A stretch of 64,000 nucleotides of DNA from a phage. How positions within the stretch are numbered: the stretch's first letter is position 1; every line of letters begins with the position of its first letter. Below, in pieces: positions 3,112-64,000 of the stretch. The DNA lies in sequence record PZ445451.1; one strand, written 5' to 3'. Under the pieces are notes generated by a model that worked only from the letters and a program-made list of their open reading frames with translations, ran no database searches and was not told the DNA's origin. A program made the position numbers and the translations under genes.

Positions 3112-3132
3112 GCGGGGAAATGGTTTCCCCGC
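3112..3132 (+). repeat. stem-loop GCGGGGAAA-TGG-TTTCCCCGC in 5' leader (hairpin family)
   Basis: 9 bp stem immediately before RBS AAGAGATAAG. Confidence 0.55.
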
Positions 3133-3152: not shown

Positions 3153-3437
3153 ATGAAGATCACAAAAGCACTTTCCAACTATGCAGCACGTCGCGGATTA
3201 TGCTTATCCGTTGAAAACTTAGGGAAAGAAGATTTTTTGTGTTTTTGGGAGCTTGAAAATGAAAGTGAATGGTTGTTCTCTTATTCTATCTGCGAAGATC
3301 AAAACGGTTGTTTGTTAACCTGGCGCGGTAATATCTATCTACCGGAAGAAATCAAAGAAGAATTGCCAGGCACGATCATGACTGAGAAACAGCTTAAGGA
3401 AGTGATTAATTTTGTAGGGCAAAACATTAAAAAATAA
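3153..3437 (+). CDS. hypothetical early protein (94 aa)
   Basis: Track ORF; promoter, leader hairpin and RBS upstream. Confidence 0.6.
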   Translation: MKITKALSNYAARRGLCLSVENLGKEDFLCFWELENESEWLFSYSICEDQNGCLLTWRGNIYLPEEIKEELPGTIMTEKQLKEVINFVGQNIKK

Positions 3438-3438
3438 T

Positions 3439-3467
3439 TTGACACTAGGCAAACAACGTAGTAAAGT
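3439..3467 (+). promoter_or_regulatory. sigma70-like early promoter (TTGACA-17-TAAAGT)
   Basis: Exact TTGACA 3439-3444. Confidence 0.5.
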
Positions 3468-3477
3468 TTATCACATA

Positions 3478-3497
3478 GGGCGGCAATAGTGCCGCTC
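3478..3497 (+). repeat. stem-loop GGGCGGCA-ATAG-TGCCGCTC (hairpin family, copy of 240-259)
   Basis: Near-identical to the hairpin at 240-259. Confidence 0.55.
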
Positions 3498-3518
3498 ATA
3501 ACAGAAGAGAAACAAATC

Positions 3519-3689
3519 ATGATCCCGACTATGTTTTATGTATCGCGCAAAGGTCACAATATTTTTTGGTCTGAAGATTTAAATGAAGCCATGACGTTTG
3601 CCCGTGATCGTGTTGCTATCGGTGGCGTTAACATTACTGTAACCGATGAAAACGGCATTGAATACTATAACGGCGACGATGAAGAGTAA
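3519..3689 (+). CDS. hypothetical protein (56 aa)
   Basis: Track ORF 3489-3689 trimmed to ATG 3519 after GAAGAGAAACAAATC RBS. Confidence 0.5.
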   Translation: MIPTMFYVSRKGHNIFWSEDLNEAMTFARDRVAIGGVNITVTDENGIEYYNGDDEE

Positions 3690-3696
3690 TTAATAA

Positions 3697-3717
3697 GGCG
3701 GGGGAGTATTCCCCGCC
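3697..3717 (+). repeat. intercistronic GC-rich stem-loop (GGCGGGGGA-GTA-TTCCCCGCC)
   Basis: 9 bp stem between stop of previous gene and RBS of next; no promoter in between. Confidence 0.5.
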
Positions 3718-3736
3718 GTCAATAAAGAGGTAAATC

Positions 3737-4006
3737 ATGAAAATATCTTTGGACGTTGCAATCAAGGCCATCGAATCCGGTTACACCCTGGTAAAAGATG
3801 ATAAGGCTAAAATAGTGCATCATGTTAACAAGGAAACAGGCGAAAGCATGATCACATATAAAGCCGCCTACTTTCTCCAATCAGTAGCAGATCCGCGCGT
3901 ACAACGCCAGGTTACAGCGGCTATTGCTAAAAAATTATGTGCTTTACAGGGCACAAGTTTTAACGAGATCGCCCCGTGTTTTGACTGGTCGAGCTTGAAA
4001 AAATAG
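3737..4006 (+). CDS. hypothetical protein (89 aa)
   Basis: Track ORF; AAAGAGG RBS. Confidence 0.6.
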   Translation: MKISLDVAIKAIESGYTLVKDDKAKIVHHVNKETGESMITYKAAYFLQSVADPRVQRQVTAAIAKKLCALQGTSFNEIAPCFDWSSLKK

Positions 4007-4007
4007 T

Positions 4008-4035
4008 TTGACAATATGCTGTTATCTGGTAAAGT
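4008..4035 (+). promoter_or_regulatory. sigma70-like early promoter (TTGACA-16-TAAAGT)
   Basis: Exact TTGACA 4008-4013. Confidence 0.5.
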
Positions 4036-4088
4036 GTACGACATAGGGCGAGGCAATAAGGCAACGCCCATTAATGAGGGGTAGAATC

Positions 4089-4193
4089 ATGTTAGAGAAA
4101 ATTTTCACGGTTGTAATAGTGGGCCTGGCGTTATCGGTTGGATTGGTTGCAACTATGGCTAACATGATCCTATCTTCCCACGGTATTGGATAA
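4089..4193 (+). CDS. small hydrophobic membrane peptide (34 aa), not in track
   Basis: ATG 4089 after GAGGGGTAGAATC; MLEKIFTVVIVGLALSVGLVATMANMILSSHGIG. Confidence 0.35.
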   Translation: MLEKIFTVVIVGLALSVGLVATMANMILSSHGIG

Positions 4194-4203
4194 GGTGAAT
4201 CAA

Positions 4204-4419
4204 ATGATCACGAATAAGACAGGTAAAACAGAATTTTTACGCAGCTTGCAAATAGGTAAACCTGAGATCTGGCATTGCACTAAATCCGCGCATAATGAAA
4301 TGAAAGATTTTACCGCTACTTTACAACGTGTTAAAATATCTATCACACAGAAAAAAGCCTTGTTAGTAGTAGAAAACGAGATCCCGCAAACCATTATTAT
4401 TGTCGAGCGTACAGCATGA
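4204..4419 (+). CDS. hypothetical protein (71 aa)
   Basis: Track ORF 4186-4419 trimmed to ATG 4204 (AAGGTG RBS). Confidence 0.5.
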   Translation: MITNKTGKTEFLRSLQIGKPEIWHCTKSAHNEMKDFTATLQRVKISITQKKALLVVENEIPQTIIIVERTA

Positions 4420-4802
4420 AAACTGAAATCATTAACGAAATGATCAACGGCTATAAAGAAGCCTTTATTTTTGCCGAACCAGCGACGGATCACAATGGGG
4501 AATATATTGAGAATCTAGACGATTATGATTTTTCTCCTAGCGCCCTGAAACGTATTACCAGCGATGTGACCGCCTTTTGTAGTGCCAATGTTGCCGCTAT
4601 CTCTGAGGCAATGAGCGACGGCGCTACAGCAAACCAGATCGGGAATGATTTACATTTTACCCGTAACGGTCACGGCGTAGGTTTTTGGGATCGCCCTGAA
4701 ATATACACTACTAACACCGCCAACCGTTTAACTGATGCAGCTAAATTAATGCCATTGGTGCATGCTTACATTGGTGAAGATAATTTGATTTATATTGACT
4801 AA
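4416..4802 (+). CDS. hypothetical protein (128 aa)
   Basis: Track ORF; start overlaps upstream stop (ATGA). Confidence 0.6.
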   Translation: MKTEIINEMINGYKEAFIFAEPATDHNGEYIENLDDYDFSPSALKRITSDVTAFCSANVAAISEAMSDGATANQIGNDLHFTRNGHGVGFWDRPEIYTTNTANRLTDAAKLMPLVHAYIGEDNLIYID

Positions 4803-4807
4803 AAGTG

Positions 4808-4836
4808 TTGACACCGATCCCCAATATGTTATTATT
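4808..4836 (+). promoter_or_regulatory. sigma70-like early promoter (TTGACA-17-ATTATT)
   Basis: Exact TTGACA 4808-4813. Confidence 0.45.
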
Positions 4837-4846
4837 TACCACGTAA

Positions 4847-4865
4847 GCGGGAAATGGTTTCCCGC
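4847..4865 (+). repeat. stem-loop GCGGGAAA-TGG-TTTCCCGC in 5' leader (hairpin family)
   Basis: Same core as 804-824 and 5706-5724. Confidence 0.55.
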
Positions 4866-4889
4866 CAGGTAATCAAAAAGGTAAATACT

Positions 4890-5705: not shown

Positions 5706-5724
5706 GCGGGAAATGGTTTCCCGC
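5706..5724 (+). repeat. stem-loop GCGGGAAA-TGG-TTTCCCGC in 5' leader (hairpin family)
   Basis: Identical core to 4847-4865. Confidence 0.55.
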
Positions 5725-29168: not shown

Positions 29169-29208
29169 ATCTCCTCCTAATAACCCCCGTGAGGGGGTTT
29201 ATGTTAGA

Positions 29209-29862
29209 TTAATTATCAGAGGATACTTTATCAAGTTTTTCAGAGACTGTCAATACTTTTTCTTGTGATTCTTTCATTTCTGCTAAAATACTTTCAGCTT
29301 CATCACTATCAGGATCACCAGTCAACAGCATACTAATTAGTTGCTCCTTGCTGAAGTTCAGAATATCTTCCGCTGTTAGCTCCAGTTGTTCTTCAATCTC
29401 TTCGACAAAAGTTTCACCGCCTGAAAAAGCATCTCGTAGTTTTGCAACTTCCATCGCTTCTTCTGGGGTTGCCCCAGCGTCTAAAGCTGCTAAAGCAAAA
29501 TCTGCCCCACTACCAACAGCATAGTAATCTTCAGTTAAAGGATATGCTCGCGTTGGATTATTACCCTCGTGCATATAAATTTTACCGTCTGGGTGAACAA
29601 CCAATGCCACAAACTCTTCATCTTCTTTATCAGGATCTGACTGGATCACCAAACCTGGGATTGTCTCTTGTGCTGCCTGGCACTGTAAGTTTTGTTCGAA
29701 CCAAGAAAAGAAAGTCAGGATAGAAGACAGACGTCCTGCACCACCAACAAGGTAATCCCCAATTTTACGCACTTTCTTAAAATTTAAAGTGTCTACTCGA
29801 TTACCTACTGTTACTTTACCGTCAGATAGAATTTTGTTATGTGTTGCAATAATTGTTGTCAT
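29209..29862 (-). CDS. HslV/proteasome beta-subunit-like Ntn-hydrolase peptidase with acidic C-terminal extension
   Basis: MTTIIA start (Thr nucleophile after Met removal), KKVRKIGD, GGAG and YAVGSGADFALAAL resemble E. coli HslV. Confidence 0.6.
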   Translation of the reverse strand: MTTIIATHNKILSDGKVTVGNRVDTLNFKKVRKIGDYLVGGAGRLSSILTFFSWFEQNLQCQAAQETIPGLVIQSDPDKEDEEFVALVVHPDGKIYMHEGNNPTRAYPLTEDYYAVGSGADFALAALDAGATPEEAMEVAKLRDAFSGGETFVEEIEEQLELTAEDILNFSKEQLISMLLTGDPDSDEAESILAEMKESQEKVLTVSEKLDKVSSDN

Positions 29863-30353
29863 TGTACTTCCTCCTGTAGTGTTTTAAGGACTGCTTTACC
29901 ACCGCTTACATACTTACGGAGGTAATCAATAGCTCTTAGTGTTTCTTTATCCACAAGAATTTTATTAGTTCTTGTCAATGGATGATTCAGTAAGTCACTG
30001 CAATTTCTTACTAACATAGATTTCTTGTGAAAGATACTGCTAAGAAAAAGAAGTTTAGAATCTTCTTCATCAATCAGGAGTAATTCTGAATTAGACCCAG
30101 CTACATTTATTATACACTCAAACAAGCCTTCTTGACTATCAGATAATTCCTGGTAATATTTAGTTAGCCAATCCTCTCCTTTTAACCAACTAAAAAACAT
30201 CTGAACTTTTTGCAAAGTTGTCATGTTCTCTAAACGAAGAGATATTTCTTTTTCAATCTTGTCAATATAAATCTGTCTAAACTCATTCGGCTTAACTAAG
30301 CCAGCTTGATAGCATTCATCAATACCATTGCGATCAATCTCAATTAGCGTCAT
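29859..30353 (-). CDS. hypothetical protein (164 aa)
   Basis: Track ORF; ATGA overlap with the HslV-like gene. Confidence 0.55.
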   Translation of the reverse strand: MTLIEIDRNGIDECYQAGLVKPNEFRQIYIDKIEKEISLRLENMTTLQKVQMFFSWLKGEDWLTKYYQELSDSQEGLFECIINVAGSNSELLLIDEEDSKLLFLSSIFHKKSMLVRNCSDLLNHPLTRTNKILVDKETLRAIDYLRKYVSGGKAVLKTLQEEVQ

Positions 30354-30389: not shown

Positions 30390-31142
30390 TTAATATACTT
30401 CCGTGATGAACTGAGACAAACGGGAACGTTGGTTATCAGCAGTTGTCATTTCAACATAACCAATAAAATCTACAATAGCTTCCCTTTCTCCTTCTTCGTT
30501 AATAGGAACAACACGATCTAACAAATCACCTAACCCGTTAGCTCTTCGTTTAATTGCATATGTTTGATTAACATCGCCCATAATGACAATACGTGTATTA
30601 AGACCTGCTCGCTCAAGGAGAAGTTTTACTGTGTTTGGTGACATAAGTTGAACTTCATCAATAAGAATAATGCTGTTATCCCACGTAGCACCTAGTGCAT
30701 AGTTCGGAATATTAAGTTCAATTTTGCCACTTGCAATATCGTTTTCCAATTTATTTGCAGTCATAAACTGTTGGAAAATTCTTTTAGTTGACTCGTAGTG
30801 TGCTGCTAGTTTATCAGTCTTATCTCCAGATAAGAAACCGATTTGGTCATCACCTACTTCTGTCGGGTTTTTAAGGAAAATCAACTTTCTGAAGTCACCA
30901 GCTTTAAGCATTTGCAATGCTTTCCATAGTGCTGTTGTCGTTTTTCCTGTTCCTGCTGGGGCATTAACAATGGTTAAATCATTCCAAACCATGCTTCTTA
31001 CAATAGCTTCTTGATTCCCAACAGGGGTAAATTCATCAAGACGGTAATCATCATTTCCTACTGCTTTAGCCGCATAACGACTGGCACGTTTGTCATCATT
31101 GGCTGCTGATTGACGACGAGCCTTTGCGGTTTTATTTCCCAT
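30390..31142 (-). CDS. phoH: PhoH-like ATPase
   Basis: Walker A GTGKTT and PhoH-type length and motifs. Confidence 0.8.
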   Translation of the reverse strand: MGNKTAKARRQSAANDDKRASRYAAKAVGNDDYRLDEFTPVGNQEAIVRSMVWNDLTIVNAPAGTGKTTTALWKALQMLKAGDFRKLIFLKNPTEVGDDQIGFLSGDKTDKLAAHYESTKRIFQQFMTANKLENDIASGKIELNIPNYALGATWDNSIILIDEVQLMSPNTVKLLLERAGLNTRIVIMGDVNQTYAIKRRANGLGDLLDRVVPINEEGEREAIVDFIGYVEMTTADNQRSRLSQFITEVY

Positions 31143-31154
31143 GTTTGCACTCCT

Positions 31155-31175
31155 TATAAAAGGGGCTTTCGCCCC
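31155..31175 (-). terminator. GGGGC-TTTC-GCCCC hairpin terminator (works in both orientations)
   Basis: Palindromic hairpin flanked by A-run and T-run. Confidence 0.5.
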
Positions 31176-31180
31176 TTTGT

Positions 31181-31841: not shown

Positions 31842-32108
31842 TTACTCCGCAATCTGAGCCATGAATTCACGTAGTTCAGAAAAACCTCCTACGTGGGTTA
31901 GCTGTTCACCATCTTCCACAAAAATCTGAGGAAATGTGCGTGGTAGAACACCTGTTTTCTCTAAAACCAGATTCTGAATCTGATCTAAAGAATAGTCTTC
32001 ATCTAAGGTAAGGTATTTAAAATCCTGTTCACGCTGTTCCAGTAGAATCTTAGCGTTAGTGCAGAAAGGACAATTTGGTTTACCGTAGATAATAAAATTC
32101 ATTTTCAC
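31842..32108 (-). CDS. glutaredoxin-like protein (redoxin for ribonucleotide reductase)
   Basis: CPFC active site near N-terminus; 88 aa; sits in the RNR neighbourhood. Confidence 0.8.
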   Translation of the reverse strand: MKMNFIIYGKPNCPFCTNAKILLEQREQDFKYLTLDEDYSLDQIQNLVLEKTGVLPRTFPQIFVEDGEQLTHVGGFSELREFMAQIAE

Positions 32109-32935
32109 TCCTTGTTTAAAAGTATAGTTAAAGTTCTTACAATACCGCTATCAACACTTCGCGGATTTAAAGTAGGATCTGTTTTTAAATAAGATGTTGC
32201 TGGTCTGACTGCTTTGGAATTATAGGTTGAAGCAGATACAGGATTAACTGTAACAGACAAATCTATAACAAGAAATATCTTTCGTGCAAAATCATACCAA
32301 GAAATATAATCTGCACCTGCATAGTGTACAATTTTACTATTTACACCATCTTTTACAAGTTTAAAAATTGTTTCTGCAAGATCAGGTGCATAAGTAGGAC
32401 ATGATAAATGATCACATACTACATTAAATTCTTTTTGACCACCGTTGTAGCGTTCCAACATAGTTTTCAAAAAGTTATGTCCAAATTCACTATAAACAGA
32501 AGCTGTTCTGATAATAAGTGCTGTAGGACAAACTGCTTGTACTAAAGTTTCACCTAATTGTTTACTGTAACCGTAGGTGTTCAAGGGGTTTGTTTTACTC
32601 TCTTCTGTGCCAGCAACATGTCCATCAAAAACATAGTCTGTTGAAATATGTACAAACTGTATCAGTAAATCATTACATGCTTTGGCAATGTTTGTTGCAC
32701 CGTATGCATTAACATTTATACAGGTGTTAACATCTTCTTCAGCTTTATCTACTGCCGTGTAAGCCGCACAATTCACAACAACATCAGGCACGTGCTGTAC
32801 AAGACTATTCATAACATCTTTAAAGTTGGTAATGTCTATATCACTTGCTTCAATCAAAATAACATCTTCGGGCGCAACTTTTGCCAAAGACTGTCCTAAT
32901 TGACCTTTTGAACCAAAGACTAAAAATTTTGTCAA
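32105..32935 (-). CDS. rmlD: dTDP-4-dehydrorhamnose reductase
   Basis: N-terminal GSKGQLG Rossmann motif; last gene of an rmlBACD-order cluster. Confidence 0.8.
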   Translation of the reverse strand: MTKFLVFGSKGQLGQSLAKVAPEDVILIEASDIDITNFKDVMNSLVQHVPDVVVNCAAYTAVDKAEEDVNTCINVNAYGATNIAKACNDLLIQFVHISTDYVFDGHVAGTEESKTNPLNTYGYSKQLGETLVQAVCPTALIIRTASVYSEFGHNFLKTMLERYNGGQKEFNVVCDHLSCPTYAPDLAETIFKLVKDGVNSKIVHYAGADYISWYDFARKIFLVIDLSVTVNPVSASTYNSKAVRPATSYLKTDPTLNPRSVDSGIVRTLTILLNKE

Positions 32936-40923: not shown

Positions 40924-41895
40924 TCACCATTTTGTATGGTTAGTCAAAAGTTGACGATGTTGAATCCAACCACAGAAGTTTCCACTCCACAAACGATGTT
41001 TACGATCCATATGTGTAATACCTTCTTCCCAAGAGGTAGGGAACGGAGGAATATTAATACCACCTTTCTGTTGTTTTAATCCTGACAAATCCATTTCTTT
41101 CATTGGCGTTGCCTGGTGTTCAAACGGAGATGCATGTACCTTTTGTCCAGACAGCAAACGAGAATAGATATCCAATGCTTTATCTTTGGTATCATTCAAT
41201 TTACGATAACTTACCTGAGCGCAACAAGAAGCTGAAATAGCTTTTGCTTCCTCTTCTGTCAACATTTTCTCGTTGGAGAAGGTTTCACCCAAGAAATAAC
41301 GGATCATACCAGTTTCTGGATCTCGATCACGATTAACGTAAGGTGTATGCCATTCCCCTGGGAAAAGAAGATATGGTTCAGAAGATTCATACAGTTTTTT
41401 AATTTCTTTAGCAAGAGCCTCAATAGTAGGATCTGCATCAGCATCTACGCGCAACCACAAGAAGTTTTCTAGCTCTGTAGTGGTTACTACAGTCTTCATA
41501 CGCTGGAATGGTTCTAGTAGGCGGTTTGCAACCTGTTTATGATAACCAGCAAGGGCAAACTCTTCTGCAAAACGTGCAGCACTTAGCGCAGCCAAGTCCC
41601 ACCATTCTTTTGCAGTGTAACCTGCATCAATCAGGGCATCGTGATCTGTGCCTTTATCTTGCATACCTGGTTGGTTAGCACCAAAACGATAAGGACGTGC
41701 TGGAGATTGCCGTACCATTTCAATTAGAGTTTTAACAGGGATAGCTCGACTTGATGCGGCATTACGAGAAAACAAACGATGCGTCATCAATTCAGAGTGA
41801 ATGATTCGAGGATATTCAAGTTCAAAGGTAACAATATCCTTACCTTCAGATGTTTGAGAGTGTGCAATAATTTTTGCTGAAATAGAGTTTGTCAT
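40924..41895 (-). CDS. thyX: flavin-dependent thymidylate synthase
   Basis: ThyX signature RHR..S.....S.R (HRLFSRNAASSRAIP). Confidence 0.85.
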   Translation of the reverse strand: MTNSISAKIIAHSQTSEGKDIVTFELEYPRIIHSELMTHRLFSRNAASSRAIPVKTLIEMVRQSPARPYRFGANQPGMQDKGTDHDALIDAGYTAKEWWDLAALSAARFAEEFALAGYHKQVANRLLEPFQRMKTVVTTTELENFLWLRVDADADPTIEALAKEIKKLYESSEPYLLFPGEWHTPYVNRDRDPETGMIRYFLGETFSNEKMLTEEEAKAISASCCAQVSYRKLNDTKDKALDIYSRLLSGQKVHASPFEHQATPMKEMDLSGLKQQKGGINIPPFPTSWEEGITHMDRKHRLWSGNFCGWIQHRQLLTNHTKW

Positions 41896-44241: not shown

Positions 44242-44270
44242 AAAAATAAAGGGGCTTTCGCCCCTTTTTA
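44242..44270. terminator. GGGGC-TTTC-GCCCC hairpin (bidirectional terminator type)
   Basis: Hairpin 44251-44264 flanked by A-run and T-run. Confidence 0.5.
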
Positions 44271-63325: not shown

Positions 63326-63757
63326 ATGATGATACTGACTATGTTAATAAACCTACTGAAGAATAAATGGGTTAGGTATTTTGTTCTTATTATAGCACTG
63401 TTTGGTGGTTTGTATGTTGGTTTAAACAAATTACACGATGACGTGTATGCACAAGGCTACAACGCAGGTATTGCTAAACAAGAACAAATATTACAACAAA
63501 ACCAAATTAAAGCAAAACAGCAATTCGATATCTTACAAGCAAAAGCAGATTCAGAAAGATCTAAATTGAATGAAAAAATTCATTCATTAACGAAACAAAG
63601 AAATGATCTTCTTACACAACTGGATAAGAAGAGTAATAACATAACACAAGAGAGAATAGATTATGCGAAAACATCTTCTGGCGCTATGTCTTGTTTTAGC
63701 CCTAATGATGACGGGTTGCGCATCATCAACAACAGCTTCCCAGCCTCTATTGATTGA
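63326..63757 (+). CDS. i-spanin-like protein (Rz-like: N-terminal TM helix plus coiled-coil periplasmic domain)
   Basis: Hydrophobic WVRYFVLIIALFGGLYVGL followed by Gln/Lys-rich coiled coil; start codon uncertain. Confidence 0.45.
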   Translation: MMILTMLINLLKNKWVRYFVLIIALFGGLYVGLNKLHDDVYAQGYNAGIAKQEQILQQNQIKAKQQFDILQAKADSERSKLNEKIHSLTKQRNDLLTQLDKKSNNITQERIDYAKTSSGAMSCFSPNDDGLRIINNSFPASID

Positions 63758-63992
63758 GCAGTGTAAAGCTGTAGCAACACAACAAATAAAAGCCCCTGAT
63801 TCTGTCAGTATGGAAAAACCATCTACCCCTGTTTTATATACTCCCAATCAAATAAAGAAAGGGGTTACAAGATCAGAGGTAGTGGATAATCAAACTTTAA
63901 ACAACGCTTTGTGGGAAAAAGATAGGATAAAACTTATCAGTTTACAAAACTATATTAAAACATTACAAAGTGAAGGAATAATTTCTAATTAG
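63663..63992 (+). CDS. o-spanin-like outer-membrane lipoprotein (Rz1-like), start embedded in the i-spanin gene in another frame
   Basis: MRKHLLALCLVLALMMTGC signal peptide with lipobox L-M-M-T-G-C. Confidence 0.5.
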   Translation: MRKHLLALCLVLALMMTGCASSTTASQPLLIEQCKAVATQQIKAPDSVSMEKPSTPVLYTPNQIKKGVTRSEVVDNQTLNNALWEKDRIKLISLQNYIKTLQSEGIISN

Positions 63993-64000
63993 GAGGAGAT

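Follow-up and report, generated by a model that had tools for sequence, protein, structure and literature searches.

A compact PPH-type proteasome-like Ntn hydrolase predicted in Escherichia phage PaulScherrer (Bas60)

Proteasome-like subunits encompass several described groups, of which HslV (ClpQ), the β-subunits of the 20S proteasome together with BPH and Anbu, and the small PPH and RPC proteins are the closest to the phage protein analysed here. HslV, the peptidase component of bacterial HslUV, displays a Met-Thr-Thr N-terminus, the Thr, Asp, Lys and Gly-Ser-Gly motifs and an α-β-β-α Ntn sandwich with four flanking helices, and forms a dodecamer in which two hexameric rings are stacked; its AAA+ unfoldase is HslU. 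The C-terminus of its partner HslU is accommodated in a pocket formed by Phe54, Phe57 and Gln114, to which Ala79 and Lys80 of helix H2 also contribute (PMC6429459). PPH proteins, which comprise about 140 residues, were described in Caudovirales and prophage remnants; both PPH and RPC are devoid of helix H2, and RPC is in addition extended at its C-terminus (Fuchs, Alva and Lupas, 2021; PMC8665760). In the same study the known distribution of RPC was restricted to Proteobacteria, and the C-terminal appendage was suggested to be a site of interaction (PMC8665760). The viral proteasome homologues are a recognised class, but one that is experimentally untouched: the searchable literature yielded no biochemical or genetic study of a PPH or of a phage protein resembling HslV, and phage functional-genomics preprints made no mention of the PPH gene or of phi92-type phages.

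The window considered here, the whole 64,000-nucleotide stretch of DNA that was analysed, shows 100% DNA identity to Escherichia phage PaulScherrer (Bas60, MZ501100.1), a phi92-like member of the genus Justusliebigvirus within the Stephanstirmvirinae. Base 1 of the window corresponds to base 87101 of the record, and positions 63326–64000 correspond to bases 1–675 (i-spanin and o-spanin); the window crosses the end of the linear record and was therefore cut from a circularised copy. The gene under study is a complete open reading frame with an ATG start (Table 1), in agreement with the preliminary description, which had located it but had given no strand. It corresponds to bas60_0204, annotated as 'putative proteasome component', and to phi92 gp058, whose product is 98.6% identical and is annotated as 'peptidase HslV family / putative 20S proteasome'; under these names, the exact sequence is found on at least 227 public contigs. 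The ribosome-binding site that precedes the start codon is annotated as such in phi92. The gene was therefore already annotated and falls in a published, experimentally uncharacterised branch of phage proteasome homologues, and in this respect represents known biology. Its current annotation is right in outline, although the label 'HslV' claims more than is known.

Table 1. Positions of the PPH gene, its parts and the neighbouring elements in the window.
Feature	Position	Strand	Remarks
PPH-type proteasome-like Ntn hydrolase	29209..29862	-	217 aa + stop; complete ORF; bas60_0204, phi92 gp058
Ntn-hydrolase core, residues 1–155	29398..29862	-	AF2 model, Foldseek, residue conservation
Acidic C-terminal extension, residues 156–217	29212..29397	-	AF2 model; no Pfam match
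Conserved motif LELTAEDILNFSKEQLISMLLTG, residues 161–183	29314..29382	-	alignments of relatives
Ribosome-binding site AGGAGG	29870..29875	-	7 nt upstream of the ATG, within the 3' end of the upstream gene
Upstream gene, phi92 gp059 homologue	29859..30353	-	164 aa; stop overlaps the PPH start (ATGA)
PhoH-like P-loop ATPase	30390..31142	-	250 aa; Pfam PF02562, E = 1.4e-35
Terminator-like hairpin AAAGGGGC-GAAA-GCCCCTTTT	31159..31178	-	between the endolysin gene and PhoH; upstream edge of the block
GC-rich hairpin AACCCCC-TCAC-GGGGGTT	29182..29199	-	10 nt past the PPH stop codon; downstream edge of the block

The PPH protein matches the PHROG 1040 profile ('peptidase HslV family') over residues 1–212, and hence over practically its full length, with E = 1.5e-62, and narrowly exceeds the gathering score of the Pfam Proteasome family (PF00227; 24.4 bits for a cut-off of 22.4). 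HslV chains were the best relatives of solved structure in the PDB, with E values of 2e-7 when the sequence alone was searched and 1.6e-12 with the profile of the family, and the similarity to the HslV/proteasome family, as judged from these comparisons, is far beyond chance. An AF2 model of the monomer was built from 25 homologues (mean pLDDT 82), and a Foldseek search of the PDB with this model returned HslV, archaeal and eukaryotic 20S β-subunits and BPH as the top matches (probability 1.0, E of about 1e-10). By its predicted fold, the product of bas60_0204 is therefore a proteasome-β/HslV-type Ntn hydrolase, as had been proposed from the letters of the DNA. The modelled core contains helices H1 (residues 45–67), H3 (120–128) and H4 (133–143), with a coil or loop at residues 68–83, where helix H2 would sit. 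Folds of the proteasome type are frequent among phage proteins: among the phage models of BFVD, 46 entries match the fold at E < 1e-3, including a 'proteasome subunit beta' of a Caulobacter phage.

The four motifs on which the original proposal was based are all present in the translation, namely MTTIIA (residues 1–6), KKVRKIGD (29–36), GGAG (40–43) and YAVGSGADFALAAL (113–126), and the HslV-type catalytic residues (Thr after Met, Asp17, Lys33 and Gly-Ser-Gly) have their counterparts in the PPH protein. The complete set of catalytic equivalents consists of Thr2 (Thr1 after removal of Met), Asp14, Lys30, Gly43, Ser118, Asp144 and Ser147, corresponding in this order to Thr1, Asp17, Lys33, Gly47, Ser129, Asp166 and Ser169 of the proteasome. 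Conservation was assessed in the 150 best representative clusters, mutually no more than 50% identical, that were obtained by searching 1.84 billion proteins. Thr2 is retained in 142 of 143 of these, Asp14 in 146 of 147, Lys30 in 149 of 149 and Gly43 in 150 of 150, while Ser or Thr is found at position 118 in 148/150, Asp at 144 in 142/150 and Ser or Thr at 147 in 142/150; an MTT start is displayed by 129 of the 150. In an alignment extending down to about 27% BLASTP identity, Met1, Thr2, Thr3, Asp14, Lys30, Gly41, Gly43 and Gly117-Ser118-Gly119 are invariant. The methionine aminopeptidase of E. coli cleaves Met when it precedes Thr, and the nucleophile of HslV is exposed in this way. The threonine that directly follows the initiator methionine had been put forward as the candidate nucleophile, and the complete and strongly conserved catalytic set upholds this assignment. 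Since this set is near-invariant in 150 diverged relatives, it is very likely that the phage encodes an active N-terminal-threonine peptidase. As a separate observation, the position of Trp54 in helix H1 is occupied by Trp in 125 of the 150 PPH-like clusters and by Leu in E. coli HslV, and constitutes a signature of the family.

The PPH protein matches the phage-specific PPH/RPC branch, in which it was placed by the published description rather than by comparison with the reference sequences of PPH (WP_042125023.1) and RPC (WP_140207863). In common with the members of this branch, it is of the compact group-I Ntn hydrolase type, is devoid of a propeptide and, in the AF2 model, of helix H2, and bears a C-terminal appendage directed away from the presumed ring. 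The family profile scores 85–100 bits against MTT-starting mini-proteins of 137–155 residues and 40–51 bits against the HslVs of the PDB, the score for phage mini-proteins of about 140 residues thus being approximately twice that for HslV. As is characteristic of the PPH group, which is borne by tailed phages, the protein is phage-encoded, and relatives were found in 167 phage records and 31 IMG/VR loci. A search of 185,579 species genomes of bacteria and archaea yielded only one match, on a 425-bp contig; the extended subfamily is essentially phage-only, whereas RPC as published is confined to Proteobacteria. The arrangement of a core followed by a C-terminal extension of no assigned fold corresponds to that of RPC, with 62 residues here and appendages of 30–220 residues in the relatives. 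On the other hand, the protein differs from PPH as described in its size (217 residues with a core of about 155, versus the approximately 140 quoted), in the site of H2, which is occupied by a 16-residue acidic loop rather than being deleted, and in the possession of the 62-residue extension with its conserved helical motif. With the 20S β-subunits, BPH and Anbu it shares the fold and the full catalytic set, including the equivalents of Asp166 and Ser169 (Asp144 and Ser147), but it is much smaller than these proteins and lacks a propeptide, an α-type partner, helix H2 and the C-terminal S12/H5 elements.

An acidic C-terminal extension of about 60 residues had been noted previously, and the 62 residues beyond the end of the core at about position 155 bear this out: residues 156–217 include 17 Asp/Glu, five Lys and no Arg, with a net charge of −12. 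The extension is predicted by AF2 to be helical, with low confidence from about residue 198 and pLDDT values below 50 for residues 209–217. Its first part harbours the motif LELTAEDILNFSKEQLISMLLTG, for which the family consensus is [LP]T.E-x5-7-[ST]KE[EQ]L[LI]..[LIF][LF].G and which is common to relatives in Klebsiella, Vibrio and Aeromonas phages and to metagenomic ones, including the contig L027. Beyond the motif the sequence is variable, and some relatives carry domains of 100–220 residues, of which one contains a Cys-rich element; Pfam searches with six diverse C-terminal tails yielded nothing below E = 0.03. The tail that follows the core is shorter than 15 residues in 69 of the 150 representatives and longer than 120 in 26 of them, and in view of this wide variation the C-terminus is to be regarded as a modular appendage. 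Aeromonas phage 4L372D (locus L006) contains two tandem proteasome-like genes, at 3432–3983 and 4001–4885. The first encodes a 183-residue protein with an H2-like insert and an annotated TTG start (given as L) followed by TCIIA, while the second is of the extended PPH type; the presence of two differing tandem genes makes hetero-oligomers possible in some phages.

The gene is part of an extended non-structural block on the minus strand, which includes the genes for thymidylate synthase, ribonucleotide reductase, dTDP-rhamnose synthesis, glutaredoxin, endolysin, PhoH, methyltransferases, a resolvase and a phosphatase. Immediately upstream is the homologue of phi92 gp059, an all-α orphan protein (pLDDT 93) that is confined to Stephanstirmvirinae-like phages and is kept together with PPH in these; a search with its model found no informative structural neighbour. 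The statement that no HslU-like ATPase is adjacent is literally correct, but a PhoH-like P-loop ATPase is encoded two genes upstream. The only two strong GC-rich hairpins in the window between 23.5 and 40.8 kb (about 17 kb) bracket exactly the PhoH–gp059–PPH genes, and the position of the upstream one is conserved in several diverged relatives. PADLOC returned no defence-system match for PPH, gp059 or gp057.

The explanation that we consider highly probable as a whole is that the gene encodes a compact, propeptide-less PPH-type Ntn peptidase that acts in the infected cell and does not dock HslU in the manner of HslV. Met1 would be removed by the host methionine aminopeptidase, leaving a threonine that would serve both as N-terminal amine and as nucleophile and would work with Asp14, Lys30, Gly43, Ser118, Asp144 and Ser147 in the hydrolysis of peptide bonds. 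PPH is the last gene of the PhoH–gp059–PPH cassette and is translationally coupled to gp059. The location in a non-structural early/middle block, in the company of genes for nucleotide metabolism and host takeover, makes it most likely that the targets of the enzyme are certain proteins of the host or the phage within the infected cell, and that it has no part in virion maturation; the processing of phage or host proteins, as envisaged in the preliminary description, seems a reasonable idea. The C-termini of proteasome-like subunits point away from the ring, and the conserved helical motif, together with the variable acidic tail, may form a module for recruitment or assembly. The role of such a self-contained threonine peptidase of phages could reveal a new strategy of host takeover or anti-defence, and would also bear on how a proteasome fold can function when helix H2, and perhaps also a ring or an unfoldase, is missing.

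The fresh lead that emerges from this locus is only the recurrent pairing of PPH with the PhoH gene of phages, which is just as enigmatic. PPH and the co-encoded PhoH-like ATPase, possibly bridged by gp059, might constitute a phage-specific machine of two or three components in which the C-terminal motif serves for docking, a reading to which we assign a low probability. In every Stephanstirmvirinae-like locus PhoH precedes PPH by 0.1–3 kb in the same orientation, the order being PhoH–gp059–PPH; phages of Vibrio, Aeromonas and Shewanella likewise have it upstream and co-oriented, and it directly adjoins PPH in Shewanella phage 1/4 and in the loci L026 and L048. In two Vibrio phages the pair has been kept despite an inserted mobile gene; the insertions are a TnpB-like ORF annotated as 'coil containing protein' in Vibrio phage 1.193.O (L005, 2767–3867) and an HNH endonuclease in Vibrio phage VnaP (L044, 2147–2761). 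On the 84-kb contig L027, which has an unrelated layout with a portal gene nearby and neither RNR nor lysozyme, the order is inverted (PPH, an 89-residue ORF, PhoH), and PPH and PhoH are the only gene families that it has in common with the other loci. In 11 mini-PPH loci without the C-terminal motif, PhoH was not found within 8 kb. The bracketing of the three genes by the two hairpins and the ATGA overlap between gp059 and PPH are likewise consistent with a joint function. However, most of the cases in which PhoH and PPH occur together go back to a single inherited syntenic block, in one relative with the motif PhoH is absent within 2.5–3.4 kb, and PhoH proteins resemble helicase-type nucleic-acid ATPases rather than unfoldases. 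The recurrent pairing is thus a lead and not proof, and a functional partnership between PhoH and PPH is, in our estimation, rather improbable.

In its most specific form, the idea is that the extended PPH protein would be the proteolytic part of a machine in which its motif docks PhoH, a non-AAA+ ATPase, with gp059 acting as an adaptor in phi92-like phages, and which would degrade a specific host factor, for example a stress or defence protein, in an ATP-dependent manner; this, too, we hold to be improbable. If it were true, PhoH, whose gene is among the commonest phage genes of unassigned role, would gain its first biochemical partner. PaulScherrer belongs to the BASEL collection of phages of E. 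coli K-12, which makes the PhoH lead testable.

A second ATPase of the same phage, bas60_0109 (PF00004, PHROG 2376; record 79408–80535, outside the window), which was the only AAA protein found in the covered parts of the genome, was considered as a specific partner and rejected. The PHROG 2376 family occurs in 380 phage records, mostly of Enterococcus, Bacillus, Staphylococcus and Lactococcus phages that are devoid of PPH, and the C-terminus of bas60_0109 (…LASVF) is neither HbYX-like nor HslU-like. Its annotation as an 'FtsH-like protease' (L004, 29408–30535) looks overstated, since it matches Pfam AAA alone and contains no peptidase domain.

The similarity to HslV led to the earlier suggestion that the phage might hijack host HslU. 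In this reading, the protein would be a functional analogue of HslV, forming a double ring that recruits host HslU and redirects ATP-dependent proteolysis during infection. HslV is indeed the top solved family in terms of both sequence and fold, and the PPH protein has the same MTT N-terminus as E. coli HslV. The resemblance that had been pointed out therefore stands as regards the fold, this N-terminus and the catalytic motifs, but does not extend to HslV (ClpQ) in the strict sense: an orthologous relationship was rejected, as the NCBIfam HslV equivalogs NF003964 and TIGR03692 gave 34.5 and 32.2 bits for cut-offs of 137 and 157.75, respectively, at least 100 bits short in both cases. The two proteins share only about 21–27% identity, and the first hairpin of the PPH protein is four residues shorter; it also differs from HslV in the extra acidic C-terminal tail and in having no hslU partner gene. 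Within the covered stretches of the 150-kb genome, which are those outside record positions 128,963–150,425 (the last third of the window, from about position 41,860 to its end), there is no annotated HslU.

In helix H1 of the PPH protein, Leu49 and Phe52 align with Phe54 and Phe57 of the HslV pocket, and these positions are hydrophobic, which is compatible with a docking function. Helix H2, on the other hand, is absent from the AF2 monomer, in which the loop IPGLVIQSDPDKEDEE takes its place; the pLDDT of this loop is about 68, and the absence of the helix is deduced from the model, of moderate confidence at this point, together with the Pro and Gly content of the segment. IPGLVIQSDPDKEDEE contains six acidic residues and one basic residue, and HMMER aligned it with H2 of E. 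coli HslV (…KAAVELAKDWRTDRMLRK…), a basic stretch with six Lys/Arg (Lys73, Lys80, Arg83, Arg86, Arg89 and Lys90) versus three Asp/Glu. In the relatives of about 140 residues, the segment equivalent to H2 is deleted altogether. Since Ala79 and Lys80 belong to H2, which is missing from the model, half of the pocket for the HslU tail would be missing or remodelled, and the loss of H2 together with the acidic surface in its place argues against docking of HslU in the manner of HslV; host HslU is probably not bound in this way.

The Escherichia, Klebsiella, Vibrio, Aeromonas and Shewanella hosts known for the extended subfamily are all gammaproteobacterial. These genera carry HslU/HslUV, and the host distribution is therefore compatible with the use of HslU. 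To our knowledge, however, the actinobacterial lineage is generally devoid of HslU. PPH also occurs in Actinobacteria (PMC8665760, Table 1). In view of the HslV equivalog scores, the modelled loss of H2 and the acidic character of a segment that is basic in HslV, the hijacking of host HslU is not supported, and we regard a functional analogue of HslV as very unlikely.

That the protein is instead a protease of virion or prohead maturation, or a catalytically dead structural remnant, is most improbable: phages commonly encode maturation proteases, and the Pfam score is barely above its threshold, but the phage has a dedicated prohead protease, whose gene adjoins those for portal, scaffold and capsid at a distance of about 40 kb from PPH on the circular map, which makes a role of PPH in capsid maturation unlikely, PPH itself lies among nucleotide-metabolism and early/middle genes, and the strong conservation of all seven catalytic positions in the 150 diverged clusters argues against a dead enzyme.

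Other elements of the window were observed alongside the cassette. The 20-nucleotide hairpin AAAGGGGCTTTCGCCCCTTT occurs twice in identical form, at 31159–31178 and 44248–44267. Near-identical hairpins (GCGGGAAATGGTTTCCCGC and variants) are present at positions 804–824, 3112–3132, 4847–4865 and 5706–5724, in a region of small ORFs at the start of the window, and may represent repeated terminators or regulatory elements of an early region. A complete dTDP-rhamnose pathway, with homologues of RmlA, RmlB, RmlC and RmlD, is encoded at 32105–32935 of the window and upstream of it (record 119205–122466); the BASEL study refers to it as putative dTDP glycosylation machinery (PMC8594841).
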